From positions 535,068 through 599,067 of the forward strand of contig NZ_JAJCVJ010000002.1 in NCBI RefSeq assembly GCF_020567425.1: a DNA stretch of 64,000 nucleotides. Direction: 5' to 3'. A model generated the notes under the pieces. It did no database searches, was not told the DNA's origin, and worked only from the letters and a program-made list of their open reading frames with translations. The position numbers and the translations under genes were made by a program. Positions 12,458 through 60,745 of this stretch are shown piece after piece. Positions within the stretch are counted from its first letter, which is position 1. Each line of letters starts with the position of its first letter. This DNA is from Salinirubrum litoreum. Lineage in GTDB: Archaea; Halobacteriota; Halobacteria; Halobacteriales; Haloferacaceae.

Positions 12458-13384
12458 TCACTCCCGATCCAGCCGCGACAGCCCGTGCCAGAGCGCGTCG
12501 ACCATCTGAGCCTCGCCGTCGGCGGCGGGATCGGTCTCGCTCCAGCCACGGGCCAGGGCGTCCTCGACGACCGCCAGCGAGTGGTTCTCGAAGTTGTTCA
12601 TCCCCCGGAACTCCTCCAGGGCCTCGCGTTCCGCCTCGCCGAACGCGTCGGTGTCGCCGCGAGCGTCGGCGACGAGGAACCCCAGTTCGGCGAGCGTGTC
12701 GGCCACGGCAGTCGCCGTCTCGCCGTCCAACTCGCGGAGGTCGTCGGGTTCCTCGCGGGCCAGGAGTGTCACGTCGTACAGTTTGAAGACGCGCTCCAGT
12801 TCGTCGATAGGGGTTTCGTGGTCGTCGACCCGGACGTCGATCCAGCGGTCGTTCTTCGCGTCGTAGCCGCCCTCGGGCTTGACGACGTACAGCGCGGCGG
12901 ACTGCTCGCCGCGACTGTCGCCGCCGGCCTCGTTGCCGGCGTGGAGCGCGGCGAGGAGTCGCTCGGGCAGGCCACCCTCGGTCGTCTCGTAGGCGTCGGC
13001 CATCGCCGTCAGCGTCTCGCGGTTCTCCAAGATGTTCCCCTGGACGGTGTAGGTCTCGCCCTGCACGTCGCCGGCCACCTCGAAACAGTCGTCGCCGGTG
13101 AACGCCGCGACGGAGCCGTCGGCACCGACGACGCCGACCTGTCGGGACTCGGCCTCGTCGTCGACGGTGGTCAACTCCGCGATGGTCTCCTCGGCGGTGT
13201 GGCCCGCCCGGAGGAGGTCGAGGCCCTCGGGGCCGTAGGCGACGTTGGCGAACGACTGGGTGGCGATGGCCCCCGCGTCGGCGGCCGCGAAGGGCACCAC
13301 GGAGCCGACGCTGACGAACTTCGACTGGACAGCGACGCCGACGGCGTCCTGTTCGGGGTCGCGTGCGACGATTGAGAACGTCAT
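12458..13384 (-). CDS. DUF1028 family protein (Ntn-hydrolase-like)
   Basis: Start MTFSIVARD typical of DUF1028; paralog at 42187. Confidence 0.6.
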   Translation of the reverse strand: MTFSIVARDPEQDAVGVAVQSKFVSVGSVVPFAAADAGAIATQSFANVAYGPEGLDLLRAGHTAEETIAELTTVDDEAESRQVGVVGADGSVAAFTGDDCFEVAGDVQGETYTVQGNILENRETLTAMADAYETTEGGLPERLLAALHAGNEAGGDSRGEQSAALYVVKPEGGYDAKNDRWIDVRVDDHETPIDELERVFKLYDVTLLAREEPDDLRELDGETATAVADTLAELGFLVADARGDTDAFGEAEREALEEFRGMNNFENHSLAVVEDALARGWSETDPAADGEAQMVDALWHGLSRLDRE

Positions 13385-13439
13385 GGTACTCGCTGTGGTG
13401 TGGGGGCGACAAAAAGGGTCGAGTACGTTCGAGACGGGA

Positions 13440-13700
13440 ACTTGGGTGATTCGAGTGATGGCGGGAACTCTGTCGGATACGTCGCAGACGACGAGCGGTG
13501 AAAGCCCCCGGCGTCTCGACCGGCCCCTTTCAGTCCCACCCGGGTTCGTGTCCCATCGTGTCGTCACTGGTCGTCACCCGGCGAACCGACTGCGAGTTCG
13601 GAACCCGGTCGTCGCAGTAGTCTCCCCACACCTCCCCGACTGCTGAGCGACCGACCTGCGAGCAGGCCCTCGCTGTCGCTCGGACACTGCTCGGGTCGGA
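13440..13700 (-). repeat. dispersed structured repeat, copy A (short form, minus orientation)
   Basis: Shares modules with copies at 38670, 46500, 51800, 54420, 55980 and 59800 (GCCAGCAGTCGGGGAGG, GGGACTGAAAGGGGCCGG, GGGGGCTTTCACCGCTCGTCGT). Confidence 0.7.
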
Positions 13701-13766
13701 TCGCCACCTGCTCGCGTCCTCGTTGGATTCCAGCGTGGGCGAGAAGGGGATGACGGCCCTGTTGTC

Positions 13767-13795
13767 GGGAGAGGTATATAAATGAGTCGCGCTTC
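13767..13795 (+). promoter_or_regulatory. TATA-like boxes upstream of uvrC
   Basis: tatataaat and tataaat in the AT-rich stretch upstream of uvrC. Confidence 0.35.
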
Positions 13796-13875
13796 GTATA
13801 AATGGTCGTCGCGGGTCGGGAGCACTCGACCGCGTCGCGTCACCCTCAAGCCGATCCGACCGTTACCACCACCGA

Positions 13876-15612
13876 ATGGAGACCGAGACCGTCCGCGACC
13901 GCGCCCGCGAGTTCCCGCGCGACCCGGGCGTCTACCAGTTCCACGCCGGCGAGGCGGTGCTGTACGTCGGGAAGGCCGTGGATCTGCGGGACCGGGTGGC
14001 GAGTTACGCCGACCCCCGGAGCGAGCGCATCCGCCGGATGGTCGCCCACGCCGACCGTCTCGACTTCGCCGTCACCGACACCGAGACGCAGGCACTCCTC
14101 CTCGAAGCGAACCTCATCAAGCGCCACCAGCCGCGGTACAACGTCCGCCTGAAGGACGACAAGTCCTACCCGCTCGTCCAGTTCACCGACCACCCGGTCC
14201 CCCGGATCGAGATCACCCGCGACCCGAACGACGCCGCGACCGTCTTCGGACCCTACACGAGCAAAGGCGACGTGGAGGTCGTCGTCAAGGCCGTCCGCGA
14301 GATCTACGGCCTGCGGGGCTGTTCCGACCACAAGTACGACAACCGCGACCGGCCCTGCCTCGACTACGAGATGGGGCTCTGCACCGCCCCCTGTACCGGC
14401 GAGATACCGGCCGAGGACTACCGCGAGGACACGGAGACAGCCCGCCGGTTCTTCGCGGGCGAGACGGGGATCCTCGCGGACCCGCTCCGCCGGGAGATGG
14501 AACAGGCCGCAGCAGAGCAGAACTTCGAGCGCGCCGCGAACCTCCGCGACCGACTGGGCATCGTCGAGTCGTTCCACGGCACGGGCGGCGAGGCGGTCGC
14601 CGGCGACACCGAGAGCGAACGCGACGTGGACGTTCTCGGCGCGGCGATCACCGGCGACGACGCGGTCGTCGCGCGCCTCCACGCCGAACGCGGCCAACTC
14701 GTGGACCGGTCGCGCCACCACCTCGACGCGCCGGAGGGCGAGGACCGCGTCGCCGACCTGCTGGCGGCGTTCGTGCCGCAGTACTACGCCGAACGCGACC
14801 TGCCCGACGCCCTCCTGCTCTCTGAACGCCCGGACGACGCGGAACTGCTCGCGTGGCTCGACTCTGAGGGTGTCGCGGTCCGGGTGCCCGGCGCGGGCAG
14901 AGAGGCCAAACTGGTCGAACTCGCGCTGAAGAACGCCCGGAGCGGCCCGACGCGCTCGGACGGCCTCGCGGCGCTGGCGGCCGAACTCGGTCTCGACGCG
15001 GCGGAGCGCATCGAGGGGTTCGACGTGAGCCACGCGCAGGGGACGGCGGTCGTCGGCAGCGACGTCTGTTTCGTCGGCGGCTCCGCCGAGAAGGCCGACT
15101 ACCGCCGGAAGAAACTCCCCGACAGAAACGACGACTACGCGAACATGCGCGACCTGCTCCGGTGGCGCGCCGAGCGCGCGGTCGAGGAGCGAGACGACCG
15201 GCCCAACCCCGACCTCCTGTTGATCGACGGCGGCGACGGCCAACTCGGCGCGGCGCGGGACGCGCTCCGGGAGGTCGGCTGGGACGTGCCGGTCGTCGCC
15301 CTCGCGAAAGAGGAGGAACTGGTGATCACGCCCGACGGCGTGCTCGACTGGGACAGCGACGCGCCGCACCTGCACGTCCTCCAACGAGTCCGCGACGAGG
15401 CGCACCGCTTCGCGGTCCAGTACCACCAGACACTCCGGGACGAAGTCTCGACCGTCCTCGACGACGTGCCCGGCGTCGGCCCGCAGACGCGCCGGCGACT
15501 CCTCCGGCGGTTCGGCAGTGTCGACGGCGTGCGCGCGGCGTCGGTCGCAGAACTTCAGGACGTAGACGGCGTCGGCGAGACGACGGCCGAGGCGATCAAG
15601 TCGCGGCTCTGA
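13876..15612 (+). CDS. uvrC: excinuclease ABC subunit C
   Basis: N-terminal GIY-YIG (PGVYQF...LYVGKA), 578 aa; C-terminal HhH region. Confidence 0.9.
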
Positions 15613-15618
15613 GTGGCG

Positions 15619-16953
15619 TCACGAGGACCGTTCCCGGTCCTCGGCCGGCGTCTCGTCCCCGTCGTCGGGTGCCGACTCGCTGTCGGCGTCCGCATCCTCG
15701 CCGGGAGGCTCTCCGTCTTCTCGCTGCTCGTCGGAGGCACCGGTCGCTGCCGTCGGGTCCTCAGTGGCCGGGTCGTCCATCTCGTCGGCATCGGGTGCGG
15801 CTTCGTCCGCCGACGCCTCGCTGTGACCGCCCCAGTCTCTGGCCTCGTCGGGGTCGGGTCGCTCGGCGCGCGTCCCCCGGTCGCCGGTCGGTTCGCGGGA
15901 CTCGACGTCTCCCGGCGAATCCTCGTCGTCTGTCGTCTCGTCTACGTCCTCGTCGTCTGTCGTCTCGTCTACGTCCTCGTCGTCTGTCGTCTCGTCTACG
16001 TCCTCGTCGTCTGTCGTCTCGTCTACGTCCTCGTCGTCTGTCGTCTCGTCTACGTCCTCGTCGTCTGTCGTCTCGTCTACGTCCTCGTCGTCTGTCGTCT
16101 CGTCTACGTCCTCGTCGTCTGTCGTCTCGTCTACGTCCTCGTCGTCTGTCGTCTCGTCTACGTCCTCGCTGTCGGTCACCTCGTCGTCGCCGCCGATCTG
16201 TCCCACACTCGGGTCGTCGGCGTGGACGCGGGTCTGGTCGACCTGCACCTCGGGGGCGTGGTGTGGTCCGTGTTCTTCGACGACGTCCTCCGGATCGGGG
16301 ACGGTCTCGTCGGTGTCGGTCTCTGTCGCGGTCGAGTCGGTCTCGTCTTCGGCCGCCACCTCGTCCTCGGTCGCATCCACCCCGTCTTCGGTCGTGATCG
16401 GGTCGACGTCGGCGGCGTCGACTGGCTGTTCGGGGCCGTCGGGTGCCTCGGCGTCCGGAACGGATTGCTCCGGCGGGTCGAGAGACGCCGCCTCCGGGCG
16501 TGCGTTCTCGGGGGTATCGGCGGTCTCCGTCTCCCCGCCGTCGGTCGCGTCCTGGAACGCCGAGGGCATCTCGGGGGCGTTCATCCCGGACTCCTCCATC
16601 CCCTCCCTGCCGGCTTCGATCCCCTCGCCGACCATGTCACCGATGTCGGTCAGACCGACGATGAACGCCGCGATCAGGTAGAGCCCCCCGGACGGCAGGA
16701 TGACCATCCCGAGGACCTCCTGTGGGAACCCGAGCACGAGCAGTGCGAGCGAGGCTCCGAGCGTCGGGAGCGACCGTTTCAGGAGGATACCGGCGGTGCC
16801 CAGCATCGCCGCGCCGATAACGAGCGCGAACAGTTGGTCGCTCGGGGCTGCCTGCCCGCCCTGTCGTCGGAACCACCAGAGGACCCCGGCCAACAGAATC
16901 GGGGTGCCGATCCCGATGAGATAGGCGTAGGTCCGCGCGCGTAACCGAGCCAT
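15619..16953 (-). CDS. membrane protein with long acidic tandem-repeat tail (DEDVDETTD x9)
   Basis: Start at MARLRAR; N-terminal TM helices followed by a D/E/T-rich region including nine identical 9-aa repeats. Confidence 0.6.
   Translation of the reverse strand: MARLRARTYAYLIGIGTPILLAGVLWWFRRQGGQAAPSDQLFALVIGAAMLGTAGILLKRSLPTLGASLALLVLGFPQEVLGMVILPSGGLYLIAAFIVGLTDIGDMVGEGIEAGREGMEESGMNAPEMPSAFQDATDGGETETADTPENARPEAASLDPPEQSVPDAEAPDGPEQPVDAADVDPITTEDGVDATEDEVAAEDETDSTATETDTDETVPDPEDVVEEHGPHHAPEVQVDQTRVHADDPSVGQIGGDDEVTDSEDVDETTDDEDVDETTDDEDVDETTDDEDVDETTDDEDVDETTDDEDVDETTDDEDVDETTDDEDVDETTDDEDVDETTDDEDSPGDVESREPTGDRGTRAERPDPDEARDWGGHSEASADEAAPDADEMDDPATEDPTAATGASDEQREDGEPPGEDADADSESAPDDGDETPAEDRERSS
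15921..16165. repeat. perfect 27-nt tandem repeat x9 inside the coding sequence
   Basis: cctcgtcgtctgtcgtctcgtctacgt reiterated with nucleotide identity. Confidence 0.9.
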
Positions 16954-17083
16954 ACAGGCCCGTTCGCCCCCCACGGGTATAACGACTTTCGGACTCCGGC
17001 CGGCGAAACGAACGCCGAGACGGGAGTCTGTGGTCGCTCGTGGCGGCCCCACGCCGCGCGCACACCGGCACACACTCGCCGAC

Positions 17084-17177
17084 CGGTCACCGCCGCGTCG
17101 TCCTGCGCGGAAGCGTTAACACATACTCGCCGACCGGTCACCGCCGCGTCGTCCTGCGCGGAAGCGTTAACACATCG
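17084..17177. repeat. 47-bp tandem duplication in the divergent promoter region
   Basis: ctcgccgaccggtcaccgccgcgtcgtcctgcgcggaagcgttaacacat present twice, head to tail. Confidence 0.85.
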
Positions 17178-17195
17178 CGGCCGAAAGAGTGCAGT

Positions 17196-18398
17196 ATGTC
17201 CTCCATCTTCCGCGAGTTGGGTCGGCTCAGCGCCGAACTCGACGGCAGTTCGGGTCAGCGGTCCGGCGGGCAGCGTGGGTCGGGCGGATCGGGCAGTCGT
17301 AGCTCCGGCGGCCGCGGACCGGGGAACGTGATCCCGATTCTCACGCTGTTGGGCATCGGTGCGTTGCTCGTGCTGTTCGTCCTGCCGATCCTCGACCTGT
17401 TCACCTTCGTCGCACTGCTCGCACTCCTGGTCGCGGTCGCCACCGTCGCCAGCGCGGTCGAAGTCGTGCAGGCCTACGAGAAACGCGCACTGACGGTGTT
17501 CGGCGAGTACCGGGGACTGCTCGACCCCGGAATCCACTTCGTCCCGCCGTTCGTCTCGAAGGCGTACACTTTCGACATGCGGACCCAGACAATCGACGTG
17601 CCCCGGCAGGAGGCGATCACCGAAGACAACTCCCCGGTCACCGCCGACGCCGTGGTCTACATCCGGGTGATGGACGCGAAGAAGGCCTTCCTAGAGGTCG
17701 ACGACTACACCCGCGCCGTCTCGAACCTCGCCCAGACGACGCTCCGTGCCGTGCTGGGCGACATGCAACTCGACGAGACGCTCTCCCGGCGCGACCACAT
17801 CAACGCCCGCATCCGCCGGGAACTCGACGAACCCACCGACGAGTGGGGCGTGCGCGTCGAGTCGGTCGAGGTGCGCGAAGTGAAACCTTCGCCGGCGGTC
17901 GAGAACGCGATGGAACAGCAGACCTCCGCCGAACGCCGCCGCCGGGCGATGATCCTCGAAGCGCAGGGGAGTCGCCGGAGCGCCGTCGAGACGGCACAGG
18001 GTGACAAGCAGTCGAACATCATCCGGGCACAGGGGAAGAAACAGGCGCAGATTCTCACGGCACAGGGTGACGCCATCTCGACCGTCCTCCGGGCGAAGTC
18101 CGCCGAGTCGATGGGTGAACGCGCCATCATCGACAAGGGGATGGAGACACTCTCGTCGATCGGTCAGGGCGACTCGACGACGTTCGTCCTCCCGCAGGAA
18201 CTGACCAGTCTGCTCGGACGCTACGGACAACAGTTGTCTGGCTCCGACGTGCAGGACTCCGCGGGCCTCGACAGCAAGCAGTTCGACGAGGAGACCCGCG
18301 AGATGCTCGGCCTCGACGACATCGAGGAGATCGTCGAGAACCTGCCGACCGAGACCGCGAACGGCGTCGAGTCGGCCGAGTTGGCACGCGAGGAGTAG
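17196..18398 (+). CDS. SPFH/band-7 (stomatin/prohibitin-like) membrane protein
   Basis: N-terminal TM then SPFH domain (FGEYRGLLDPGIHFVPPFV...); coiled-coil/acidic C-terminus. Confidence 0.85.
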   Translation: MSSIFRELGRLSAELDGSSGQRSGGQRGSGGSGSRSSGGRGPGNVIPILTLLGIGALLVLFVLPILDLFTFVALLALLVAVATVASAVEVVQAYEKRALTVFGEYRGLLDPGIHFVPPFVSKAYTFDMRTQTIDVPRQEAITEDNSPVTADAVVYIRVMDAKKAFLEVDDYTRAVSNLAQTTLRAVLGDMQLDETLSRRDHINARIRRELDEPTDEWGVRVESVEVREVKPSPAVENAMEQQTSAERRRRAMILEAQGSRRSAVETAQGDKQSNIIRAQGKKQAQILTAQGDAISTVLRAKSAESMGERAIIDKGMETLSSIGQGDSTTFVLPQELTSLLGRYGQQLSGSDVQDSAGLDSKQFDEETREMLGLDDIEEIVENLPTETANGVESAELAREE

Positions 18399-18433
18399 CG
18401 ACGGACGCCGAGGTCACCGACGCGGACGCCGAC

Positions 18434-19135
18434 TCACGCGGCGGGCGACGTGGACGCCGCGACCGCCTGTCCCGCGACGTGGGCGACGACGACGAAGACG
18501 TAGAACTGCACGACGAAACCGACAAGCAGGAAGACGAGCGGTGCGGCGACGAGGCTCCCGGCGACCGCGACGAGGCCTGCGAGGAGCATCCCGACGACGT
18601 ACGACTTCGAGAGGGCGACCGCTCTGAGCGCGTCCCAGCGGAACGCCGCACCGAGGTCGTCTTCCACCGCGAGACCGACGAGTGCGGCCGGGAGCAGGTA
18701 GTATGCGAGCAGTGAGAGGAGTGCCCCCAGAAGGATCACGCCGACGAAGACGACGAGAAACAGTGTCGTTCCGGCGGCCGCACCCGCCTCGCTGCCGGCC
18801 GCGCCGGACCCGAGTGCTGCGCCGAACGGGAGTGCGAACACCGCGACGAGGACGCCGCCGACCGTGACGACGAACACGGGCAGGAGGTACGCGAAGACCA
18901 CGAGGAGCGCCTTCAGGCCGTCGACAGCGAGCGTCTCCCAGTCGTCCCACGGCGGGAGTTCGTCGGTGTCGCCCGTGTCGTCGACTGCGTCTCGGAGCAC
19001 CCGGAGGAGGTAGCCGTACAGGAAGACACCGGGCAGGACGAAGATGGCCCCACCCAACTGGATCGCTCCGCCGATCAGCAGTCGTTGCAGCGCCTCGTCG
19101 CCGGACCGTGCGTAGGACAACGCCTCACTCAACAT
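18434..19135 (-). CDS. polytopic membrane protein (DUF4013-like)
   Basis: Pattern resembles the haloarchaeal DUF4013 family; multiple TM helices. Confidence 0.45.
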   Translation of the reverse strand: MLSEALSYARSGDEALQRLLIGGAIQLGGAIFVLPGVFLYGYLLRVLRDAVDDTGDTDELPPWDDWETLAVDGLKALLVVFAYLLPVFVVTVGGVLVAVFALPFGAALGSGAAGSEAGAAAGTTLFLVVFVGVILLGALLSLLAYYLLPAALVGLAVEDDLGAAFRWDALRAVALSKSYVVGMLLAGLVAVAGSLVAAPLVFLLVGFVVQFYVFVVVAHVAGQAVAASTSPAA

Positions 19136-19219
19136 ACCTGTCGCAACGGTTCAGTGTCGGCTACTTAGTCGTTGGCAGACGCGCCGGCATCGGCGGAGGG
19201 TCGAGTCGAGTACGCCGTG

Positions 19220-21280
19220 TCAGAAGTCGGGGTCGATCTCGGGGGCGACGCCGTCGTCCTCGGCGTCGAGCGCGAAGTCCCGGCGCAGTTCCCGGATGCG
19301 GTCGCGGATGTCGGCCGCGAGTTCGAACTCGAGGTTGCCGGCGGCCTCGTCCATCTTGTCCTCCAGCACCGCGATGCGCTGTTTCGCTTCCTCGGCGTCG
19401 GCCACGTCGTCGGTGCTGGTGCCGGCGGTGTCGGTCTTGCTCCCCGGGAGCGAGGTCTCGCCGACCTCCTTCTCGATCGTCGTCGGCGTGTAGCCGTGTT
19501 CCTCGTTGAACTCCTGCTGGATCGCTCTGCGGCGCTGGGTCTCCTCGATGGCCGACTCCATCGCGTCGGTCGTCCGGTTCGCGTACAGCACGACCTCGCC
19601 CTCGACGTTCCGGGCGGCGCGGCCCATCGTCTGCACCAGCGTCGTCTCCGAGCGCAGGAACCCCTCCTGGTCGGCGTCGAGGATGGCGACGAGACTCACC
19701 TCGGGGATGTCGAGGCCCTCTCGCAGGAGGTTGATCCCGACGAGCACGTCGATCTGGCCGAGTCGCAGGGAGCGGATGATCTCGTGGCGTTCGAGGGTGT
19801 CGGTCTCGTCGTGCATGTACTCGACCGCGACGCCGGACTCCTCTAAGAACTCGGTCAGGTCCTCCGCCATGCGCTTGGTCAGCGTCGTGACGAGGACGCG
19901 TTCGTCGCGGTCGATGCGCTCTTCGATGCGACCCATCAGGTCGTCCACCTGGTCGTCGGCGCTCTCGACGGTGACCTTCGGGTCGACGAGGTGGGTCGGG
20001 CGGACGATCTGTTCGACGATCTGGTCGCTGTGCTCGCGTTCGTAGTCGCCCGGCGTCGCCGAGACGTACAGCGTCCGGTCGGTCTTCTCCTCGAACTCCT
20101 CGAAGGTGAGGGGTCGGTTGTCGTAGGCGGTCGGCAGGCGGAAGCCGTTCTCCACGAGCGAATCCTTCCGGGACTTGTCGCCCGCGAACTGGCCTTTGAT
20201 CTGCGGCAGGGTCTGGTGGGACTCGTCGACCACGGTGAGGAAGTCGTCCGGGAAGTAGTCCAGCAGGGTGTAGGGAGCCTCGCCCGGTTCGCGGTCGGAG
20301 AGGTGGACCGAGTAGTTCTCGATGCCCGAACAGTAGCCCGCCTCTCTCAGCATCTCCAGGTCGAAGGTCGTGCGCTCCTCGATGCGCTGGGCGGCCACCA
20401 GGTCGCCCTGTCGCTCGAAGTGGCGGACGCGGTCGTCCATCAGGTCCTCGATCTCCGCGATGGCGTTCTCGAGGCGTTCTTCGGGGATCGAGTAGTGTTC
20501 CGCCGGGTGGATCAGGACGGCCGGTTCTTCGGACTTGACCTCCCCGTCGAGGGTGTCGATCTTCAGCATCCGGTCGATCTCGTCGCCCCAGAACTCGATC
20601 CGGACCGCGTACCGGCCGTACATCGGGAACACCTCGACGGTGTCGCCCCGGACGCGGAAGGTGCCCTGCTGGAAGTCCACGTCGTTGCGCTCGTAGTTCA
20701 GATCGACCAACTGGGCGAGCAGTTCGTCGCGGTCGATCTCCTGGCCCACGGAGAGTTCCAGCGACATGTCGACGTAGTTGCGCGGGTCACCGAGCCCGTA
20801 GATGGCCGAGACGGAGGCGACGACGATCACGTCGTCCCGCGTGAGCAGCGACCGCGTCGCGGAGTGGCGCAGGCGGTCGATCTCCTCGTTGATCGACATC
20901 TCCTTGTCGATGTAGGTGTCGGTCTGTTCGACGTAGGCCTCCGGCTGGTAGTAGTCGTAGTAGGAGACGAAGTACTCGACGGCGTTGTCCGGGAACAGGT
21001 TGCGGAACTCCTCGTACAACTGTGCGGCGAGGGTCTTGTTGTGCGCGATGACGAGGGTGGGTTGCTGGAGTTCCTCGACCGTCCACGAGACGGTGTTAGT
21101 CTTCCCGGAGCCAGTCACCCCGAGCAGGGTCTGTTCGTCCATCCCGGACTCGTAGCCGGCCACGAGTTGCTCGATGGCTTCGGGTTGGTCACCGGCCGGG
21201 TCGAAGGGGGCGTCGACCCGGAATCGATTGTCGGCTCCCGGTCGGTCCGGCTGGAGCGGCCCGGACGTGCTGTCGCTCAT
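19220..21280 (-). CDS. uvrB: excinuclease ABC subunit B
   Basis: 686 aa; helicase motifs ([12 protein letters not shown]) and UvrB C-terminal domain. Confidence 0.9.
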
Positions 21281-21365
21281 CGTGTGGTAGTTGGCCCGGA
21301 ACTACTTGACCGGTGCGCTCGGGACGCTCCCGACCCGTCCGCCGGCGACCGCGACAGCCGAGAGT

Positions 21366-21552
21366 GCCGCCACCACCACCGTGACCGACCGCCACCACCA
21401 CCGTGACCGACCGCCACCACCACCACCGACCGACCGCCACCACCGACCGACCGCCACCACCACCGTGACCGACCGCCACCACCACCACCGACCGACCGCC
21501 ACCACCACCACCGACCGACCGCCACCACCACCACCGACCGACCGCGACCGCA
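21366..21552. repeat. imperfect microsatellite (GACCGACCG-CCACCACCACC)n, about 9 units
   Basis: Direct reading of tandem units between uvrB and the downstream ORF. Confidence 0.85.
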
Positions 21553-21560
21553 ATCCGCAG

Positions 21561-21630
21561 ACGTCGGCCTTTGCCGAACTCACGAACGTCGGCTTTTGCC
21601 GATCCCTCCCGACGTCGGCTTTTGCCGAAC
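21561..21630. promoter_or_regulatory. three copies of palindromic site ACGTCGGC-TTTT-GCCGAAC (TCGGC-N4-GCCGA)
   Basis: Copies at 21561, 21586 and 21612, about 25 bp apart; candidate operator array. Confidence 0.5.
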
Positions 21631-21718
21631 CAGTACACCGCGAGAGCCGACCGAACACTCGGCGAGGTCGACGCACGACAGAGAAACCGGTTTGAGGCCC
21701 CGAGGAGAAGGCCCGGTC

Positions 21719-22000
21719 GTGACCCGAGAACTGCTTCAGCAGGCGAGCGACGAACTCCGGCAGGCGAGCGAACTCGCGCCCGAGGACGTGACCGAGCGCA
21801 TCTACGAGCAGTCGAACCAACTGGCGAAACTCGCGACCGCCGACCGGGGGCCGGACCACGGCCGACTCGCGCGACACACGAACGCCCTCGCCGAGATCGC
21901 CGACTCGCTGGACGAGGCCGGCGCGGGCGAGGCCGCAGACCACGTCCGGGACGCCCGGAGCCTGATCAGCGAGTACCGGAAAGACCTGCCGGGCGTCTGA
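21719..22000 (+). CDS. small hypothetical acidic protein
   Basis: ORF 21596..22000; a GTG start at 21719 avoids overlap with the palindrome array; start uncertain. Confidence 0.35.
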   Translation: MTRELLQQASDELRQASELAPEDVTERIYEQSNQLAKLATADRGPDHGRLARHTNALAEIADSLDEAGAGEAADHVRDARSLISEYRKDLPGV

Positions 22001-38565: not shown

Positions 38566-38669
38566 ACGCGGCTCCTCGGTCGACTGTGCCGACTCGTTCG
38601 AGCACTGCACCACCAGTCACCCGACGACGCGACCACCACTGGACTCCGACAGGACGGGACCCCAACAGG

Positions 38670-38965
38670 ACGCGAGCTGGTGGCGACCGGAATCGAGCAG
38701 TGTCCGAGCGACAGCGAGGACCTGCTGGCAGTCCGCGTCGCCAGCAGTCGGGGAGGGGTGGGAACTACTGCGCGAGTTCGGGTTCCAAGCCGGCAGGCGA
38801 CACGCCGGGTCACGACCAGTAACTGCACGATGGATCGCAGAGTCGGGGGGGGGACTGAAAGAGTCCGGGGGCTTTCACCTCCCGTCGTTCGTGTCGGATG
38901 CGACCGAGTTCGCTCCGACGTATCGACCCGAGTTCACACCACTCGCGTGTCGGTCACCTCACCCC
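38670..38965 (+). repeat. dispersed structured repeat, copy B (short form, plus orientation)
   Basis: Aligns with the revcomp of copy A and with both ends of copy C; lacks the central about 230 bp of the long form. Confidence 0.7.
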
Positions 38966-46166: not shown

Positions 46167-46493
46167 ATGATCGCAATCGTCGCAGGCACGGACGAGGACG
46201 GACTGGGCGAGGCTCTCGAGAGCGAGGGTGTCGAAGTACGACGGATCGACGGGCTGGCGACCGGCGAGACGCTCAAGTCGGCGGGCATCGCGGCGGCGGA
46301 CCTGTTCGTCCTGACGGACACCAGTGACGCGACCGCGATTCCGGTGGCGAAGGACGCGAACCCCGAGATCCGGGTCGTGTTGTACGCCCGCGACTCCCTG
46401 CCGGAGTTCGCCAAGGGGCAGGCCGATCTGGCGGTCGATCCGGCGCTGTTGTCTGTCGATGTCGTGGCCGAAGAACTGGTCGATACTGCGTGA
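46167..46493 (+). CDS. small Rossmann-like hypothetical protein
   Basis: 108 aa directly following guaA; weak TrkA-N-like pattern. Confidence 0.4.
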   Translation: MIAIVAGTDEDGLGEALESEGVEVRRIDGLATGETLKSAGIAAADLFVLTDTSDATAIPVAKDANPEIRVVLYARDSLPEFAKGQADLAVDPALLSVDVVAEELVDTA

Positions 46494-46499
46494 GGGATT

Positions 46500-47450
46500 C
46501 GGTCGGGGTGTAGGCGAACAGCACTCGGCGACCTGTTTCGAGACGAGTGTGGTGCCGATCGGACTGTCGTCGTGAACGGCCGTGATGGCACTCGCACCGC
46601 AACCCCGACAGCATCCGCCACCGTAACCACGACTGAAACAGCATCCGCCACCGCGACCGCCGCGAGTAGTAGCGCGAGGAACCGCACCCGCACAGCACCG
46701 TGACCGCACCTCGTCCTCCCCAGCCTCGCCGGATGCTCTCCGCACCGCCCGCATCCGGCTCCCTCGCGCGCGTCGGAGTCGCGCGCGCCGGGTTCGAGGT
46801 GAAGGCTCACGCGACACTCGTCATCCGATAATTCCGGCGACAGCCTCGGAATCCGAGCGGATGCGATCTGCTGGCGACCGGAACCGAGCAGTGCCGGAAC
46901 GACAGTGGAGGCCTGCTCGCAGGCCGCGTCGCCAGCAGTCGGGGAGGAGTGGGGACTACTACGACGACCGGATTCAAGACCAGCAGACGATACGCCGGGT
47001 GACGACCAGTGGCGACAGGATGGGACACAAATCTCGGGTGGGACTGAAAGGGGCCGGTCTCTCGATCCATCCCGGACGACGCAAGCCGGGCGGGACCGGA
47101 GGTCCCGCTGGAAACCGGCGCGCCGCGCCGGTGACAGAGCGAGACCGGAGGTCTCGCCAGCAGTCGGGCGACTCTCGGGTCACCCGACAACACTGGACTG
47201 AGGGAGAGCCGGCCTGCCGGCTCTCCCGAGGGAAGCGCGCAGGGGAGTCCCGGAGGTCTTCGTGAGCCTGCGAACGAAGGCTTGTCAGAGCTTGCCTCTG
47301 ACAGTGGTCGAGAGACCGGGGGCTTTCACCGCTCGTCGTACGTGACCGATCCAACCGAGTTGTTGACGACCGATCCGACCGACTTCACAGCAAAAACGCA
47401 TCCAACCGAGTTCACACGTCGACACAACGTTTACTCCCCCACCACTCGAC
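46500..47450 (+). repeat. dispersed structured repeat, copy C (long composite form, plus orientation)
   Basis: Low-complexity GC-rich left part (46500-46860) followed by the conserved hairpin-rich modules; ends 8 bp before the cupin gene start. Confidence 0.7.
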
Positions 47451-47458
47451 CATCCGGT

Positions 47459-47779
47459 ATGCTCGACTGCTACGACGTCCCCGACGCAGACCCCGGCGAA
47501 GTCGCCTCCGGCGAACTGGTCGTCAGCGACGACGTCCTCGTCAAAGTGTTCGCACTCGGTCCCGGCGCGGAACTCCCCGCCCACGAACACGGCGACAGCA
47601 CCAACGTCTTCCACGTGCTGGAGGGCACCGTCACCGTCCTGCAGGACGACACAGAAGAGGAGATCACCGCACCGGGCGTCGTCCACCACGAACGCGGACG
47701 GGCACACGGCGCGCGCAACGACACCGACGAGGTGGTCGTCTTCACAGCGAGTCTCGCGCCGATGCCCGGCAGTGGCTGA
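47459..47779 (+). CDS. cupin domain protein
   Basis: LPAHEHGDSTNVFHVLEGT cupin motif. Confidence 0.6.
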   Translation: MLDCYDVPDADPGEVASGELVVSDDVLVKVFALGPGAELPAHEHGDSTNVFHVLEGTVTVLQDDTEEEITAPGVVHHERGRAHGARNDTDEVVVFTASLAPMPGSG

Positions 47780-51021: not shown

Positions 51022-51146
51022 ACTCACGGGTCGCAGGACACCGACAAGTGCGTGGCGGTCCTCGCTCGGGGGGCCGACAAGTGCGTGGCGGTCATCGCTC
51101 GGGCGACCGGGGTGTATTTTTGTCCGCCCGGCGGGAACGCCCGCCC

Positions 51147-51770
51147 GTGCAGGACCTCTCACACCCGATCCGGACCGGGATGCCGACCTACCCCGGCGAC
51201 CCGGCGGTGTCGCTGACGCCCCACGCGACTCACGAGTCGGACGGCTACCGCGTCACGTCGCTGTCACTCGGGAGCCACACCGGCACGCACGTCGACGCCC
51301 CGGCACACGTCGATCCGGGCGGGAAGACGCTCGCGGACTACCCGGTCGAACGCTTCCGGTTCGACGCGCGACTGGCCGACTGCCGGGGTGTCGGCGCTGG
51401 CGAGGCAGTCGAGGTGGCGGATCTGCGATCTGCGGGACTGGAGACGGACGTGGCGGACCGTGACCTGCTGGTCGTCCGGACTGGCTGGGCCGACCACTGG
51501 GACACCGACGCGTATCTCGACCACCCGTACCTCGCGCCGGGCGCGGCCGCGTGGTGTGCCGAGCGTGTGCTGGCGGTGGCGCTCGACACGCCGAGTCCGG
51601 ACCCCTTCGGCGACGCGGCGTTGCCGGCCCACCACGCGCTGCTGGGTGCGGACTGTCTCGTGATCGAGAACGTGACGAACCTCTCGGGGCTGCCGGCGCG
51701 CTTCGCGGTTCGGGCGCTGCCGGTGCTGGGTGTGGACGGCTCGCCGGTTCGGGTCGTCGCCGAGTGGTGA
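51147..51770 (+). CDS. putative cyclase family protein (kynurenine-formamidase-like)
   Basis: HxGTHxDxPxH motif (HTGTHVDAPAH); GTG start. Confidence 0.65.
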   Translation: MQDLSHPIRTGMPTYPGDPAVSLTPHATHESDGYRVTSLSLGSHTGTHVDAPAHVDPGGKTLADYPVERFRFDARLADCRGVGAGEAVEVADLRSAGLETDVADRDLLVVRTGWADHWDTDAYLDHPYLAPGAAAWCAERVLAVALDTPSPDPFGDAALPAHHALLGADCLVIENVTNLSGLPARFAVRALPVLGVDGSPVRVVAEW

Positions 51771-51799: not shown

Positions 51800-51960
51800 G
51801 ATCGGGGAGCACTCGGCTGCATTGGTTGCGGACGACGAGGGGTGAAAGCCCCCGGCAGTCTCGACCACTGCTCGGTGTCGGTCGCCAGCAGATCGCGTCC
51901 TGTCGGATTCCGGGTGCGGGCAGTGACGGGGTCACTGAGGCCGTTAGGACAACCGCAACA
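51800..51960 (-). repeat. dispersed structured repeat, copy D (partial)
   Basis: GGGGTGAAAGCCCCCGG...CTGCTCGG...GTCGCCAGCAG modules. Confidence 0.5.
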
Positions 51961-54419: not shown

Positions 54420-55160
54420 TCTGTCGAACGAGTCGGAGACACCCCAGCCGAGTGAGTTGCAGACGACGAGCGGTGCAAGCCCCCGGCGTCTCGACCACCG
54501 TCAGCGGCACGCTCTGACAAGCCTTCGTTCGGTCCTTCACGAAGACGCCCGCGACTTCCTGTCGTTCGAGAGAACGAAGCTCTCTCGTGATGACGAGAGA
54601 CGCCGGCCCCTTTCAGTCCCGCCCGATCTGTGAGAGTGCACACAACTCCCGGTGGACCAGTCGGTCTCAGCGAGAGTTCCTCCCTGCGACCGTCGGCGTG
54701 CCCGAGGCGGCCTCACGCCGCCGAGGTGTGGTGCCCGAGGCGGCCCCACGCCGCCGAGGTGTCGCGCCAGCCCACTCGACTGGTAAATCCGGTGCGAGCA
54801 GGATTCTCAATTCGACGGTCGCGGTGCTGTTGGCGGCCGGCGCGCGCGAGAAATGCGCGCGAGGGAGTGACGCGGGCGGTGCGGAGAGCGTCACGAGGCT
54901 GGGGAGGACCGAGGTGCGGTGCTGTGCAGTGCGGTCGCCGTCTGCAGTGTGCTTGCGGTTCCGCTGGGAGGCGCGCTACGACGAGTAGCGGTACTGTCGC
55001 GGTTGTGGGTGCGGTTCCATGCGCTAGCAACAGTGGCGGTCGCGGTCGAGGATGCAGTCGCGGTGCTGTCGCAGTCTACGGCGTCGTTCTCGTCCCAGTT
55101 TCCGATCCACACTCGGTCGTAACGCGGAACTACAGCACTGACGCTAGAACCCACTCCACA
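54420..55160 (-). repeat. dispersed structured repeat, copy E (long composite form, minus orientation, diverged)
   Basis: Conserved modules at 54465-54640 plus a low-complexity part at 54830-55160 homologous to 60300-60745; contains an internal 2 x 35 bp direct repeat. Confidence 0.6.
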
Positions 55161-55172
55161 CCCATCTTCTCG

Positions 55173-55751
55173 TCACTCGTCGCCGGAGTCATCGAACATC
55201 GCGGTGTTCGTTTCGACGACTTCCTCGGTCTCCTCGGGGTCGACGTCGGTCGCATCGCTCTCACTCGCGTCGACCTCGCTCACCGCCTCCCCGGCCGACT
55301 CGTCCGCCTCGTCTCCCACAGCCTCCTTCCAGTGGATGCGAACCGTGCCGATGGCGAAGGCGTCGTCGGCGCCCGGGTCACGGCGAATCTGAATCGTGTT
55401 CGTGCCCTCGTGGAGCGACGCGCCGGTGAGGCTGTCGACCCAGTACTGCCAGCCGTCGTTCGGCGGGATGTCGAACCCGGAGAGCGTCTCGCCGTTGATC
55501 TCGATCTCGTGGTCGTAACTGCCCACGTCGAACGCCTGGAGGCCGACGAAGGGCTCGTGGGTGTCGTCGGTCGGCACCTCGAACTCGTAGACCGCAGTCT
55601 CGTCACCGACTGGGTCCGCCCAGTCGAGTCCGAGCGACCGGTCCTCGGGTCCGAGCTGTGCCCCGACGTAGACGACAGCGTAGTTCGCGCGAAATCGCAC
55701 ACCTGCCGGTACTCGGGGAAGCAGTATAAGTACGACGACCGACCGCGGCAC
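55173..55751 (-). CDS. hypothetical protein with acidic C-terminus
   Basis: ORF only; start uncertain. Confidence 0.35.
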   Translation of the reverse strand: MPRSVVVLILLPRVPAGVRFRANYAVVYVGAQLGPEDRSLGLDWADPVGDETAVYEFEVPTDDTHEPFVGLQAFDVGSYDHEIEINGETLSGFDIPPNDGWQYWVDSLTGASLHEGTNTIQIRRDPGADDAFAIGTVRIHWKEAVGDEADESAGEAVSEVDASESDATDVDPEETEEVVETNTAMFDDSGDE

Positions 55752-55758: not shown

Positions 55759-57132
<1,374 letters not shown>

Positions 57133-59799: not shown

Positions 59800-60745
59800 A
59801 CGGAGTGTGTGTCGGATCGGTCTTCGGCGTCACCTCAGGTGAATCGGTCGGCGACGACGAGCGGTGAACCCCCCGGTCTCTCGACCACCGTCAGCGGCAC
59901 GCTCTGACGACCCTTCGTCACCGGCGCTCCACGCCGGTTGCTGGCGAGAGCTTCGCTCTCGCTCTGTCGTCGGCGCGCGCGCCGGTTTCCAGCGAGACCC
60001 TCGGTCTCGCTCTGCTCACGAGACCGCCGGCCCCTTTCGGTCCCACGCGACTCCGTGTCCCATCACGTCGCGTGGGTCGTCACCCAGCCAGTCGTCTGTC
60101 CGTCTGGAACCCGGCAGTCGCAGTCCTCCGCCACCCCTCCCCGACTGCTGGCGACCAGGCTGTGGGCAGGTCACTCGCCGTCGCTCGAACACGACTCGGT
60201 TCCGGTCGCCACCAGATCGCATCCTCTCGGGGTCCGGGCTGTCGTCGAAGTGACCGGGTGACGATGCTGACGCCTGCTTCGACCTCGAAACTGGCGCGCG
60301 CGAGCAACGCGTGCGAGGGAGGATCGCGCGTTCAGGCGTGATCCTCGTGAGCAGAGCGAACGAGGGCTAGCGAGAGCGGGCCTCTCGCCATGTCCGAGGT
60401 TGGGGAGGACCGGGGTGTGGTCGCGGTGCGGGTGCGGTCGGTGTGCGGGCGCTGTCGCGGTGCGGGTGCGGTCGCGGCGCGGGTGCGGTCGGTGTGCGGG
60501 TGCGGTCGCGGTGCGGGTGCGGTCGCGGTGCAGGTGCGGTTCCCTGCGCTAGCACGAGTAGCGGTGCTAATGCTGTGGCGGTCGTGGATGCAGTAGTCGT
60601 CGTAGTCACAGTCCCAGTAGTCGTCGTAGTCACAGTCCCAGTAGTCGTCGTGGTCACAGTCCCAGTAGTTATCGCAGTCGCGGTCTGCGATGCGATCTGC
60701 TCACAGTTTCCGATACCCACCATCCACGAACCTAGCATCGACACA
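59800..60745 (-). repeat. dispersed structured repeat, copy G (long composite form, minus orientation)
   Basis: Revcomp aligns over about 560 bp with copy C including the central hairpins; low-complexity GC-rich part at 60300-60745. Confidence 0.7.

Follow-up and report, generated by a model that had tools for sequence, protein, structure and literature searches.

Seven copies of a modular, hairpin-rich element

Dispersed among the genes of the window, the 64-kb stretch of haloarchaeal DNA analysed here, are seven copies of a non-coding, modular and hairpin-rich element (Table 1). Self-BLAST of positions 46450-47500, repeat finding and alignment placed them at about the coordinates and on the strands that an earlier note on this sequence had given, and neither self-BLAST nor a covariance model detected additional copies within the window. 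Copy orientations alternate within 50 kb (-,+,+,-,-,+,-), and the density amounts to 7 copies per 64 kb. No ORF is common to the copies. ORFs listed at 46861-47265 and 60367-60744 fall inside elements and are probably spurious calls. The motifs shared by the copies are far above chance in shuffle counts for the window: GGGACTGAAAGGGGCCGG had five matches with at most three mismatches versus 0.10 expected, a number equalled by none of 100 shuffles, and CCGGGGGCTTTCACC had six matches with at most two mismatches versus 0.16 expected.

Short forms measure 150-330 bp and long forms extend up to about 950 bp including their arms. This division had been recognized correctly, and we added four refinements to it. 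What had been described as an extra centre is a hairpin interior that has expanded in copies C, E and G and was lost in copies A and B; the collapsed hairpin of copy A has the sequence GGGGCCGG-tcgagacg-CCGGGGGC. Copy D consists of a 5′ module fused to the 3′ motif, and copy F is a 3′ fragment only. In copies C, E and G, the supposed low-complexity arm bears minisatellites and consists of the conserved upstream module in reversed orientation, followed by GT-rich tandem repeats. This module has the layout GGCGCGCGC-hairpin-GCGCGCGAGGGA-hairpin-GAGGCTGGGGAGG, and the reversed arm of copy C could be aligned with the upstream module of units from other genera.

Copy C illustrates the long form. 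Its 5′ module and core1 contain nested long-range helices (GGAAUCCG/CGGAUUC and CUGCUGGCGAC/GUCGCCAGCAG), and P1 and P1′ of its expanded unit enclose at least seven small hairpins. The folding energy of the copy was −266 kcal/mol versus −224 kcal/mol for shuffled sequence (z = −6.5), and the minimum-energy fold closes the P1 stem. The core2 hairpin pair at 47084-47143 has a 60-nt match to Natrinema, DL1 and DL31 plasmids, in a stretch that is unannotated there and is also readable as a 123-aa Cys-rich ORF on the opposite strand.

Table 1. Positions, strands and main features of the repeat elements and their parts
Feature	Position	Strand	Description
Copy A, short form	13420..13760	-	5′ module ~13745-13685; core1 with CAGCAGTCGGGGAGG ~13685-13545; 3′ tail; between divergent DUF1028 and uvrC genes
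Copy A, collapsed unit	13543-13494	-	Covariance model 46.2 bits, E = 4.5e-7
Copy B, short form	38640..38965	+	Collapsed unit 38845-38882 (GGGACTGAAAGAGTCC-GGGGGCTTTCACC), covariance model 27.6 bits; convergent spacer of radical-SAM and peptidase M29 genes
Copy C, reversed arm	46500..46840	-	On the minus strand GGCGCGCGCGAC..GCGCGCGAGGGAG-hairpin-CGAGGCTGGGGAGGACGAGGTGCGG, then GT-rich degenerate repeats
Copy C, 5′ module and core1	46845..47035	+	Contains CAGCAGTCGGGGAGGAGTGGGG
Copy C, expanded unit	47036..47330	+	5′ motif GGGTGGGACTGAAAGGGGCCGG and P1 (TCTCTCGA) ... P1′ (TCGAGAGA) and CCGGGGGCTTTCACC; 5′ part, covariance model 38.8 bits
Copy C, 3′ tail	47331..47428	+	GCTCGTCGT..GATCCAACCGAGTT repeats
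Copy D, minimal form	51800..51960	-	5′ module (51925-51866) directly abuts GGTCGAGAC-CCGGGGGCTTTCACC (51855-51841), then tail; convergent spacer of cyclase and TetR genes
Copy E, long form	54420..55160	-	Unit 54624-54472 with CTTGCACC variant of 3′ motif, covariance model 37.8 bits; spacer of phosphopantothenate synthetase and DUF7383 genes
Copy E, tandem repeat	54698-54762		33 nt x2
Copy E, reversed arm	~54797-54971	+	Contains GAGGCTGGGGAGG
Copy F, fragment	55980..56110	+	GGGTCGAGCGG-CCGGGGGCTTTCACC (56067-56081) and tail; lacks 5′ motif
Copy G, long form	59800..60745	-	Unit 60048-59863 (GGGACCGAAAGGGGCCGG ... CCGGGGGGTTCACC), covariance model 20.7 bits; upstream of Usp gene
Copy G, 5′ module and core1	~60250-60050	-	
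Copy G, reversed arm			GAGGTTGGGGAGG and minisatellites, 17 nt x7.5 at 60413-60540 and 24 nt x3.3 at 60591-60669
Ends of inverted-repeat-bearing elements of other genomes			GGNAGTGTTCAGATAAGCG

Relation of the elements to neighbouring genes

Three copies had been reported to end immediately 5′ of a gene start in the same orientation, and a promoter or 5′-UTR role had been suggested. Such gene starts do lie 3′ of copies A, C and F and also of copy G, and copies B, D and E are situated in convergent 3′/3′ spacers. Host cis-acting signals (a promoter, 5′ UTR, terminator or mRNA stabiliser) could therefore be considered: four of the seven copies are upstream of a same-orientation gene, three of seven are just downstream of one, and the outward-facing CCCC(C)TTTCA at both unit ends loosely resembles haloarchaeal TTTTCACC promoter boxes. 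However, for units of many genomes the two orientations were virtually equally frequent among 107 upstream neighbours (53 versus 54) and 94 downstream neighbours (47 versus 47), and the informative tandem spacers were divided 17 (++) to 16 (--). The neighbouring genes are mutually unrelated, and the T run is only three long, which is poor for an archaeal terminator. Moreover, copies A and C stop upstream of TATA-like boxes that belong to the genes themselves: the cupin ATG at 47459 follows TTTACT (47430-47435) by 27 nt, and the DUF1028 ATG at 13384 follows CTTTTT (13416-13411) by about 29 nt. These data speak against the promoter or 5′-UTR role, and we consider a cis-acting function very unlikely.

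We found no recurrent protein family encoded within 2.5 kb of 129 motif matches, the largest cluster comprising seven loci. This cluster is a plasmid “DNA-binding protein” beside one plasmid subfamily, with only a sub-threshold match to an Ssb-like OB fold. An IS110 or bridge-RNA link was considered for the unit on Haloferax volcanii pHV4, which is near the ISHvo9 and ISHvo10 transposase genes. As that unit is outside the IS, about 170 bp from its end, the proximity was treated as coincidence.

The hairpin unit and its covariation

The two motifs GGGACTGAAAGGGGCCGG ... CCGGGGGCTTTC form the closing pair of a rod-like hairpin, the unit, which spans about 115 nt and has the layout GGGYGGGACUGAAAGGGGCCGG - P1 - P2 - ACGACGCAAGCACCGCAG - variable tip - GAGGAGCGCAGCGAG - P2′ - P1′ - CCGGGGGCUUUC. 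Two sets of substitutions had been interpreted as compensatory, and both are present: gagaccGGAggtctc at about 47141-47155 in copy C with gagagcGAAgctctc at about 59950-59965 in copy G, and ggcctgctcgcaggcc in copy C with ggacctgctggcagtcc in copy B. The covariation is real and became statistically strong once relatives from other genomes were included in a structural alignment of 66 units. RNAalifold predicted 24 pairs for this alignment, with double compensatory changes in 15 of them. Paired cells made up 93.8% versus 79.8% in shuffles, and the covariation score was 0.323 versus 0.094; none of 500 shuffles reached the observed value, and slid controls gave 0.03-0.06. While the stems vary by compensatory substitution, the internal loops stay fixed. 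Asymmetric internal loops (GGGG versus GGGGG, ACGACGCAAG versus GCAGCGAG and an A-A mismatch) are unpaired and conserved in sequence across genera. The stems contain 62 G-U or U-G pairs versus 25 A-C or C-A pairs (p = 9e-5), indicating that one strand is the folded strand.

The unit also acquires small hairpins and loses its interior between flanking CCGG repeats. Collapsed units of the form GGGGCCGG-GGGCTTTC occur in other genomes (L083, L089, L044), as in window copies A and B, and a 56-nt hairpin block distinguishes the elements that two related metagenome-assembled genomes carry at the same site. Where units form head-to-head pairs, their spacers are 23-26 or 34-36 nt. The window copies are a lineage-specific subfamily, with a collapsed unit in copies A and B and a unit enlarged by additional hairpins in copies C, E and G.

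Covariation could in principle be a mutational by-product of DNA palindromes, produced by template switching or gene conversion with no selection on a folded molecule. Consistent with this possibility, the flanks of an orthologous locus in two related genomes are 91-95% identical and the element only 79%, a P1 helix block switched from GCTACG/CGTAGC to GCTCGAC/GTCGAGC with both variants common elsewhere in the genome, and new perfect mini-hairpins arise as blocks. However, the asymmetric internal loops remain unpaired and conserved from genus to genus and are not “corrected” into perfect palindromes, and a strand-symmetric process does not predict the excess of G-U over A-C pairs. We regard this explanation as very unlikely.

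Is the unit an RNA gene?

The same features raise the question of whether the unit is a structured non-coding RNA gene with its own transcription, encoding either an sRNA present in many copies or the RNA component, for instance a guide or scaffold, of a protein partner, with its mobile features being secondary. The strong covariation, the invariant internal loops and the strand-specific G-U excess all speak for such a gene, and class-wide conservation of the unit exceeds that of the surrounding element. In Halobacterium, moreover, expression of an RNA derived from a PATE has been documented (PMC4615843). Relative to the 5′ motif, there is an A/T-rich peak at −44 to −38 and the position at −13 is A-rich, which would fit archaeal TATA-to-start spacing; however, the peak is an inverted repeat or the motif of the partner unit rather than a recognisable TATA box, and window copies B and D lack an A/T-rich box upstream. 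The Haloferax volcanii transcription tables, which cover one unit copy at best, contained neither a transcription start nor an sRNA at the unit in the portions analysed: the sRNA list is empty for pHV4 12485-20696, where a good unit is located at 14800-14909 on the minus strand, and the motifs are absent from the 70-nt upstream sequences in half of the transcription-start table. Collapsed and grossly expanded units are tolerated, and 7 copies in 64 kb together with absence in relatives suit a repeat better than a gene family. An independent RNA gene is thus a possible but doubtful reading.

No named family matches the element, which the earlier note could not assign to one either. When the window and ten loci carrying canonical units were scanned against Rfam at gathering thresholds, only tRNAs were identified. 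At relaxed E values, the window had a sub-threshold match to a CRISPR repeat model and one of the loci (L045) had sub-threshold matches to microRNA precursor models; all were rejected, the microRNA-like matches as hairpin noise. The CRISPR-DR20 match scored 31.4 bits versus a gathering score of 42 and is on a GC-rich palindrome outside any array; a repeat search and TRF found no regularly spaced repeats at its position. A literature search by motif strings and topic found no paper describing the element, and the MITEs of Halobacterium (MITEHsal), which are AT-rich and based on inverted repeats, are unrelated to the unit. The unit has gone unannotated and is missing from Rfam.

Distribution of the unit in Halobacteria

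The earlier note, confined to the window, could not show that the family is more than local and that its core is conserved class-wide in Halobacteria. The core, with its compensatory changes, was found in more than 30 haloarchaeal genera. Among the matches listed for an exact 18-mer in genome contigs, 118 of 120 loci belonged to Halobacteriales, representing about 22 named genera; the locus count is a lower bound (at least 118). A 118-nt consensus matched 107 haloarchaeal plasmid records, 52 of them at nearly full length and almost all at positions without an annotated feature. Units reside in intergenic DNA of chromosomes and plasmids as many dispersed copies in either orientation, and copy density and location differ among related genomes. 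The covariance model gave 131 unit matches in 726 kb of loci from other genomes that had been preselected for carrying the motif, three matches in 20 kb of the window's own genome and none in 54 kb of three relatives.

Viral carriage was considered and rejected: the two exact matches in 2.9 million viral contigs were both in contigs that did not look haloarchaeal, and the rest of the unit was absent from them. A metagenome scan with the window-specific core1 motif CAGCAGTCGGGGAGGNGTGG produced five chance matches and no element, so that modules of the window type look lineage-restricted.

Features bearing on mobility

In several genomes, units are inside elements of 200-330 bp that have terminal inverted repeats (GTGTTCAGATAAGCG) and target-site duplications of about 9 bp. 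The ends of these sister subfamilies are GTGTTCAGATAnGCG ... CTTAKCTGAACAC, with the inverted-repeat pair GTGTTCAGATAnGCG / CGCTTATCTGAACAC, and flanking direct repeats of about 9 bp are CGTCCGGCC, TCGCTTGGG and CCGATCCCCAKG at loci L081, L045 and L015, respectively. One MITE is kept at the same site in two related genomes. The fetched loci contained only adjacent MITEs and no longer IS bounded by the same inverted repeats, and no autonomous partner element was found in the loci searched.

For the window copies, we found no clear ends, terminal inverted repeats or target duplications. The GTGTTCAG repeat was absent from the 64 kb, direct repeats in the flanks were no better than in shuffles, and the best candidate inverted-repeat pair, in copy C, matched by eye at only about 11 of 16 positions. 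Units were absent at the sites checked in relatives. Copy E was absent from the orthologous spacer of one relative (L131), where the flanking genes have 84-87% DNA identity, and the motif stretch of copy F was replaced there by a different, shorter sequence of 92 nt. Because other sequence takes their place, this relative provides no clean empty site for E or F, and no clean pair of filled and empty sites was obtained in the relatives compared.

Haloarchaeal PATEs are abundant, heterogeneous, hairpin-bearing elements without inverted repeats or target duplications that undergo core deletions between short repeats (PMC3119063), a picture that the window copies resemble. The elements might thus be PATEs, that is, remnants of IS200/IS605 (IS1341/TnpB) elements, in which case their sub-terminal palindrome or omega-RNA scaffold would correspond to the hairpin, and full-length IS605-type elements ending in GGGACTGAAAGGGGCC or GGGGGCTTTC would be implied. 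Single-strand transposition requires folding of one specific strand, which also fits. However, no TnpA-like or TnpB-like family recurred within 2.5 kb of the 129 motif matches and no transposase was present among the window ORFs scanned. The end hairpins of haloarchaeal IS1341 elements are described as 8-bp stems with a UUCA loop and not as 115-nt rods, the orientations within 50 kb give no sign of replication-strand bias, and inverted repeats with 9-bp duplications, as in the sister subfamilies, are never made by IS200/IS605. We consider a PATE origin distinctly unlikely.

A model for the origin and spread of the elements

On balance, we lean towards the interpretation that the window elements belong to a superfamily of mobile repeats that are non-autonomous and in which structural selection acts on the hairpin core as a single strand. 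The earlier note had left a choice between a MITE-like mobile element and an sRNA gene family, and the evidence favours the former. Its argument that covariation pointed to a structured RNA rather than a MITE is not exclusive, because related subfamilies combine a covarying hairpin with inverted repeats and duplications of about 9 bp. The unit behaves like an unannotated MITE-like repeat and not like a gene-specific regulatory RNA.

According to this model, the seven elements would be decayed and rearranged members of a large superfamily found throughout Halobacteria and resembling MITEs or the small mobile repeats of Haloquadratum. In some lineages the unit travels within elements that have terminal inverted repeats and target-site duplications. 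Copies would spread by transposition catalysed in trans, and a DDE transposase would be the probable enzyme for the forms with inverted repeats, whose 9-bp duplication and GGNAGTGTTCAGATAAG end are reminiscent of IS5/IS903-type ends. The hairpin core may be kept because propagation needs it, or because a host or element protein reads it as folded single strand, either RNA or ssDNA. In the window lineage, the family would have expanded to its present density and later diversified as copies A, B and D suffered core deletions, copies C, E and G accumulated hairpins, and minisatellites grew in the reversed arm.

Two observations sit less easily with a simple MITE. An ordinary DDE-type MITE needs no strand-specific folding, and the excess of G-U over A-C pairs counts against it. 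Furthermore, conservation across genera is stronger for the unit than for the inverted repeats around it, and the unit is found in four or more different contexts, which would be unusual if only a transposase end mattered and suggests that the unit has its own function. We therefore entertain, as a tentative and rather unlikely alternative, that the unit is itself a functional single-stranded module, either a class-wide haloarchaeal RNA or a folded-ssDNA recognition element. A conserved protein would then read the invariant loops GGGYGGGACUGAAAGGGG, ACGACGCAAGCACCGCAG, GAGGAGCGCAGCGAG and GGGGGCUUUC, and the unit may self-propagate or may have been captured repeatedly by different carrier elements. 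Such a module would, by analogy, be an archaeal counterpart of REP/RAYT or guide-RNA/transposase partnerships, although RAYTs are not known from archaea. At the base of the hairpin, four invariant G-tracts are candidates for a G-quadruplex that could form at the molar K+ inside haloarchaea.

If the mobile-repeat interpretation is correct, an abundant structured element is present in Haloferax volcanii, Haloferax mediterranei, plasmids of Halobacterium salinarum and most other genera. Annotation would be affected by the spurious ORFs called inside elements, and genome plasticity by their serving as sites for recombination, deletion and minisatellite growth. For RNA discovery, the elements caution against taking covariation as proof of an RNA gene. 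Why the ends of a mobile repeat should be less conserved than the hairpin it contains is a question that a covariance model and hundreds of copies now make testable.

Comparison with known repeat families

PATEs and omega (sot) RNAs are like the window copies in having hairpins, undergoing core deletion and being abundant in haloarchaea, with at least one transcribed; they lack inverted repeats, and none could be found for the window copies. They differ in hairpin size and sequence, the tnpA/tnpB link was not found for the unit, and its sister subfamilies have inverted repeats and 9-bp duplications. The SMR-A elements of Haloquadratum walsbyi (HqIRS42/43/55) are non-coding, about 110 bp long, consist largely of a long inverted repeat and are present in tens of copies per genome (Dyall-Smith et al. 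2011, PMC3119063). Compared by description, they are likewise haloarchaeal, often nested in other mobile elements and without a known transposase or mobilisation mechanism. SMR-A elements lack target duplications and insert into IS605/PATE palindromes (PMC3119063). In contrast to the diverged, covarying and class-wide unit, SMR-A copies are more than 95% identical in one species and form three families without mutual similarity.

ERIC (IRU), Correia (NEMIS) and RUP/BOX repeats are bacterial intergenic imperfect palindromes of 100-150 bp found in either orientation. MITEs of the ERIC type have inverted repeats and target duplications, shorter forms that arise by internal deletion and longer ones that arise by insertions at fixed internal sites, and ERIC is conserved across genera. 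These palindromic, intergenic repeats, with their deletion and insertion variants, resemble the unit family. However, they are bacterial and have no sequence in common with the haloarchaeal unit, whose conserved part is an interior hairpin carried by several unrelated sets of ends, and not the ends themselves.

REP and BIME sequences resemble the unit family. They are abundant extragenic palindromes that form mosaics, often as inverted doublets of constant spacing, and it is the folded single strand that is recognised; the head-to-head unit pairs recall REP doublets (REPINs). Whereas REP sequences measure 20-40 nt and begin with a GTAG-type head, the unit has no such head and a length of about 115 nt. 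If the mobile-repeat interpretation holds, these elements would give haloarchaea an equivalent of their own to the REP, ERIC and Correia repeats of bacteria.

Seven copies of a hairpin-rich element in intergenic DNA

The window is chromosomal haloarchaeal DNA with a GC content of 68% (public assembly GCA_042657545.1, contig JBHSKX010000002.1), and its nearest named relatives are Halobaculum species, with a phosphopantothenate synthetase ~84% identical. The earlier note had claimed seven dispersed repeat copies. Self-BLAST of 46450-47500 against the window matched all seven sites, copies A to G, and no others, and a general repeat search linked the same sites (families D6, D9, I2-I16 and I18). 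Within the window, GGGACTGAAAGGGGCCGG was matched 5 times with up to three mismatches (0.10 expected) and CCGGGGGCTTTCACC 6 times with up to two (0.16 expected); no shuffle reached either count. All copies are intergenic, and divergent, convergent and tandem spacers are all occupied. The scanned ORFs of the window included no transposase.

Coordinates of the repeat copies and other features, with covariance-model (CM) scores
Feature	Position	Strand	Setting or description	CM score (bits)
Copy A	13420-13760	-	DUF1028/uvrC spacer, divergent	46
Copy B	38640-38965	+	radical-SAM/peptidase M29 spacer, convergent	28
Copy C	46500-47428		DUF7126/cupin spacer, tandem	39
Copy D	51800-51960	-	cyclase/TetR spacer, convergent	
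Copy E	54420-55160	-	phosphopantothenate synthetase/DUF7383 spacer, convergent	38
Copy F	55980-56110	+	divergent spacer, 47-aa ORF adjoining DUF7383 (tagged PF26396 HacaP)/2-hydroxyacid dehydrogenase	
Copy G	59800-60745	-	upstream of Usp gene	21
Mini-hairpins	54560-54600, 47255-47310; L032, L036, L040, L080, L089, L093, L129		insertions in units	
GGGACCGGAGGTCCC + CCGGCGCGCCGCGCCGG pair	47084-47143		in copy C	
Plasmid matches to this pair	L001 2501-2560, L006 1501-1560, L007 1501-1568		unannotated stretches	
(C)CAACCGAT/ATCCAACCGAGTT repeats	56117-56137, 47345-47415		between element tails and downstream promoters	
TTTACT	47430-47435		27 nt upstream of cupin ATG at 47459	
CTTTTT	13416-13411		~29 nt upstream of DUF1028 ATG at 13384	
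Inverted repeat I1	17456-18336/31663-32543		881 nt, 84% complementary	
27-nt (nine-codon) tandem repeat	15866-16266		11 units, four perfect; inside 484-aa ORF 15619-17073(-), no Pfam match	
22/23-nt tandem repeats (GACCGACCGCCACCACCACC...)	21361-21552		just past start of uvrB, 19220-21280(-); overlapped by ORF 21302-21943, no Pfam match	
DUF7383 ORF	55173-55751; L003 17715-18293	-	Pfam match, E = 6e-56	
33-nt tandem duplication	51041-51103		near-perfect (96% matching), at annotated start of cyclase ORF 51048-51770	
Conserved plasmid locus	L004 171-1037, L005, L031, L110, L120; related L130		one unit subfamily	
Head-to-head pairs, examples	L045 3455-3490, L087 1841-1865			
MITE at orthologous site	L100 1341-1550/L075 2737-3004		related metagenome-assembled genomes	

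Inspection of the copies revealed that GGGACTGAAAGGGGCCGG and CCGGGGGCTTTC form opposite sides of a single long hairpin at its base. Copy C has GGTCTCTCGA after the first motif and, 250 nt further on, TCGAGAGACC ahead of the second. In its minimum-energy fold (-266 kcal/mol, compared with -224 in shuffles; z = -6.5), precisely this stem is closed and encloses several small hairpins clustered together. At the core of the element is the unit, a rod-like hairpin module with helices P1 and P2. Its interior is absent from copies A and B, which read GGGGCCGG-tcgagacg-CCGGGGGC; the 5′ module of copy D is fused directly to the 3′ motif and copy F is a 3′ fragment only. The arm of copies C, E and G, previously described as low-complexity, has a defined structure: its opposite strand reads GGCGCGCGC-hairpin-GCGCGCGAGGGA-hairpin-GAGGCTGGGGAGG, with GT-rich repeats beyond, and alignment showed that this module is the one preceding units in other genera. 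Minisatellites have grown in the arm of copy G (17 nt x7.5 and 24 nt x3.3), and copy E contains a 33-nt duplication. Mini-hairpins of ~25 nt with variable stems and conserved ends (TTCACGAGAGC-GAA-GCTCTCGTGA, CCAGAACCC-GGA-GGGTTCTGG and TTCGAAAGACGC-GAA-GCGTCTTTCG, for example) are inserted at varied points in units of several genera as well as in C, E and G, and appear to be a further set of palindromic insertions on a smaller scale.

Plasmids of Halobacterium sp. DL1, DL31 and Natrinema carry matches of 79-85% identity to the GGGACCGGAGGTCCC + CCGGCGCGCCGCGCCGG hairpin pair of copy C, with a compensatory change in one stem; the L001 match falls within a 123-aa Cys-rich ORF that is unannotated and read from the opposite strand. 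The short repeats next to the element tails may be host-spacer sequence and not part of the element, because a similar CATCCAACCGG occurs in the element-free metagenomic relative L131. Elsewhere in the window, a pair of SPFH/Band_7 paralogues encoded on opposite strands accounts for inverted repeat I1. The DUF7383 ORF is absent from the called genes of the public assembly; its orthologue is called in L131.

The unit is widespread in Halobacteriales and covaries

Comparison of copy C with a plasmid collection yielded short matches of 80-89% identity in six genera, and plasmids of Halobaculum, Halorientalis and Haloplanus had the same two motifs enclosing a different yet complementary stem, GCGCTCGAC/GTCGAGCG. 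An exact 18-mer scan of one genome per prokaryotic species identified at least 120 loci; among the matches listed, 118 of 120 were in Halobacteriales, and the remaining two, in Clostridia, were taken as chance matches. Two exact 18-mer matches in viral contigs were not haloarchaeal-looking and lacked the rest of the unit. A 118-nt consensus matched 107 haloarchaeal plasmid records (52 nearly full length), including Haloferax volcanii pHV4, Haloferax mediterranei and Halobacterium salinarum; nearly all of the matches carried no annotated feature. Outside the window, units occur after a GGCTGGGGAGG module, in a conserved plasmid locus and as 'solo' collapsed GGGGCCGG-GGGCTTTC forms. The plasmid locus is conserved across genera and its unit adjoins a gene for a 288-aa 'DNA-binding protein' with an Ssb-like OB-fold match below the Pfam cut-off (E = 6e-4); a CCAGCCAACCGATGGG segment upstream of the unit is also conserved.

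Alignment of 66 units of 105-135 nt gave the consensus GGGYGGGACUGAAAGGGGCCGG - P1 (9-11 bp) - P2 - ACGACGCAAGCACCGCAG - variable tip hairpin - GAGGAGCGCAGCGAG - P2′ - P1′ - CCGGGGGCUUUC, in which the 5′ motif does not vary because units were selected on it. RNAalifold predicted 24 pairs, with both sides changed in 15. Counted in cells, which stand for sequences rather than evolutionary events, pairing amounted to 93.8% compared with 79.8% in shuffles, and double changes to 201 compared with 61. The covariation score of 0.323 (0.094 in shuffles) was attained by none of 500 shuffles, and it fell to 0.03-0.06 when the 3′ partner was slid by 1-3 columns. The hairpin-preserving substitutions quoted earlier were found in the window sequence, and the cross-genome alignment with its shuffle and slide controls supports the claim of covariation. 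This alignment was used to build a covariance model, which found five units in the window and 131 units in 99 loci of other genomes. In the 131-unit alignment, G-U/U-G pairs outnumbered A-C/C-A pairs by 62 to 25 (p = 9e-5), an excess indicating that the strand written in the consensus is the folding strand, as RNA or single-stranded DNA alike, which this test cannot separate; when pair types were tallied on the structure-blind alignment, G-U again exceeded A-C by roughly 2:1.

Orientation, promoters and transcripts

Promoter or 5′-UTR function had been proposed for the elements. With genes called by a simple GC3-based method, the closest gene upstream was on the same strand as the unit in 53 cases and on the opposite strand in 54, downstream genes were divided 47 to 47, and tandem spacers 17 to 16. 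A cis-acting RNA signal would be expected to produce an orientation bias, and its absence from these counts disfavours such a signal. No protein family recurred beside units at the loci examined. The cupin and DUF1028 genes each have a TATA-like box at the 27-29-nt spacing typical of leaderless haloarchaeal genes, TATA boxes being centred at -27 to -29 in a Haloferax volcanii table. Both boxes lie outside the elements, which are therefore upstream of the promoters and not within the transcripts, contrary to the proposed function.

Haloferax volcanii transcript lists, partial tables covering one copy, were weakly negative: no sRNA is called at the pHV4 unit (14800-14909), where the list passes from 12485 to 20696, and no unit motif lies within 70 nt upstream of the transcription starts in part of a dRNA-seq table. 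An autonomous RNA function of the unit is the reading that would make the finding important, if true; the covarying helices are compatible with it, the transcript lists lean against it, and we regard it as unlikely.

Evidence on mobility within and outside the window

In the window copies, the terminal inverted repeat GTGTTCAG is absent and direct repeats in the flanks (e.g. CCGTCAC on both sides of D) were no better than shuffles. The copies have no definable boundary, similarity fading gradually at both ends. Together with the absence from the metagenome collection of core1, a window-specific motif 5′ of the unit, these features make the window subfamily look old, lineage-restricted and decayed.

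In two metagenome-assembled genomes, the unit lies inside a ~210-bp element with ends (G)GTGTTCAGATAnGCG and CTTAKCTGAACAC(TAC), and in Haloplanus, Halonotius and others the same ends enclose a head-to-head pair of diverged units. Direct repeats of ~9 bp flank the carrier elements (CGTCCGGCC, TCGCTTGGG and CCGATCCCCAKG). Elements with these inverted-repeat ends and direct repeats are MITEs in the strict sense. The inverted 5′ motifs of head-to-head pairs are separated by 23-26 nt (8 cases) or 34-36 nt (13 cases), with about one helical turn between the classes, and this ~10-nt step suggests either that a DNA-binding protein is phased along the helix or that there are two subfamilies. Such pairs occur in ~21 loci, many with CAGCCGA/TCGGCTG in the spacer.

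In L131, where the DNA identity of the flanking genes is 84-87%, an unrelated ORF fills the E spacer, and what occupies the F spacer is shorter, different in sequence and free of the motif. The covariance model found no unit in 54 kb of three relatives, as against three in a 20-kb portion of the genome that the window comes from. One MITE at an orthologous site in L100 and L075 is 79% identical, compared with 91-95% for its flanks, with a 56-nt two-hairpin indel and the P1 helix swapped as a block. This divergence suggests inter-copy gene conversion or template switching, and the block swap implies that some 'compensatory' change was not stepwise.

Of the options raised earlier, a MITE-like mobile element is the most likely. 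On balance, we favour a superfamily of non-autonomous, MITE-like repeats in Halobacteria, with a hairpin core selected as a folded single strand and a lineage-specific, partly degenerate expansion in the window.

Comparison with known families

The earlier note could assign the element to no named family; Rfam 15 likewise includes no corresponding family, and we found no earlier description in the literature. The closest described haloarchaeal class is SMR-A, the small mobile repeats of Haloquadratum, which are ~110 bp long with prominent inverted repeats and whose mobilisation has been described as enigmatic (PMC3119063). PATEs, the IS200/IS605-derived haloarchaeal remnants, share hairpins and core deletions with the elements described here, although the latter lack the IS605-type gene link. 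The bacterial elements that behave most similarly are ERIC/IRU, Correia and REP/BIME.
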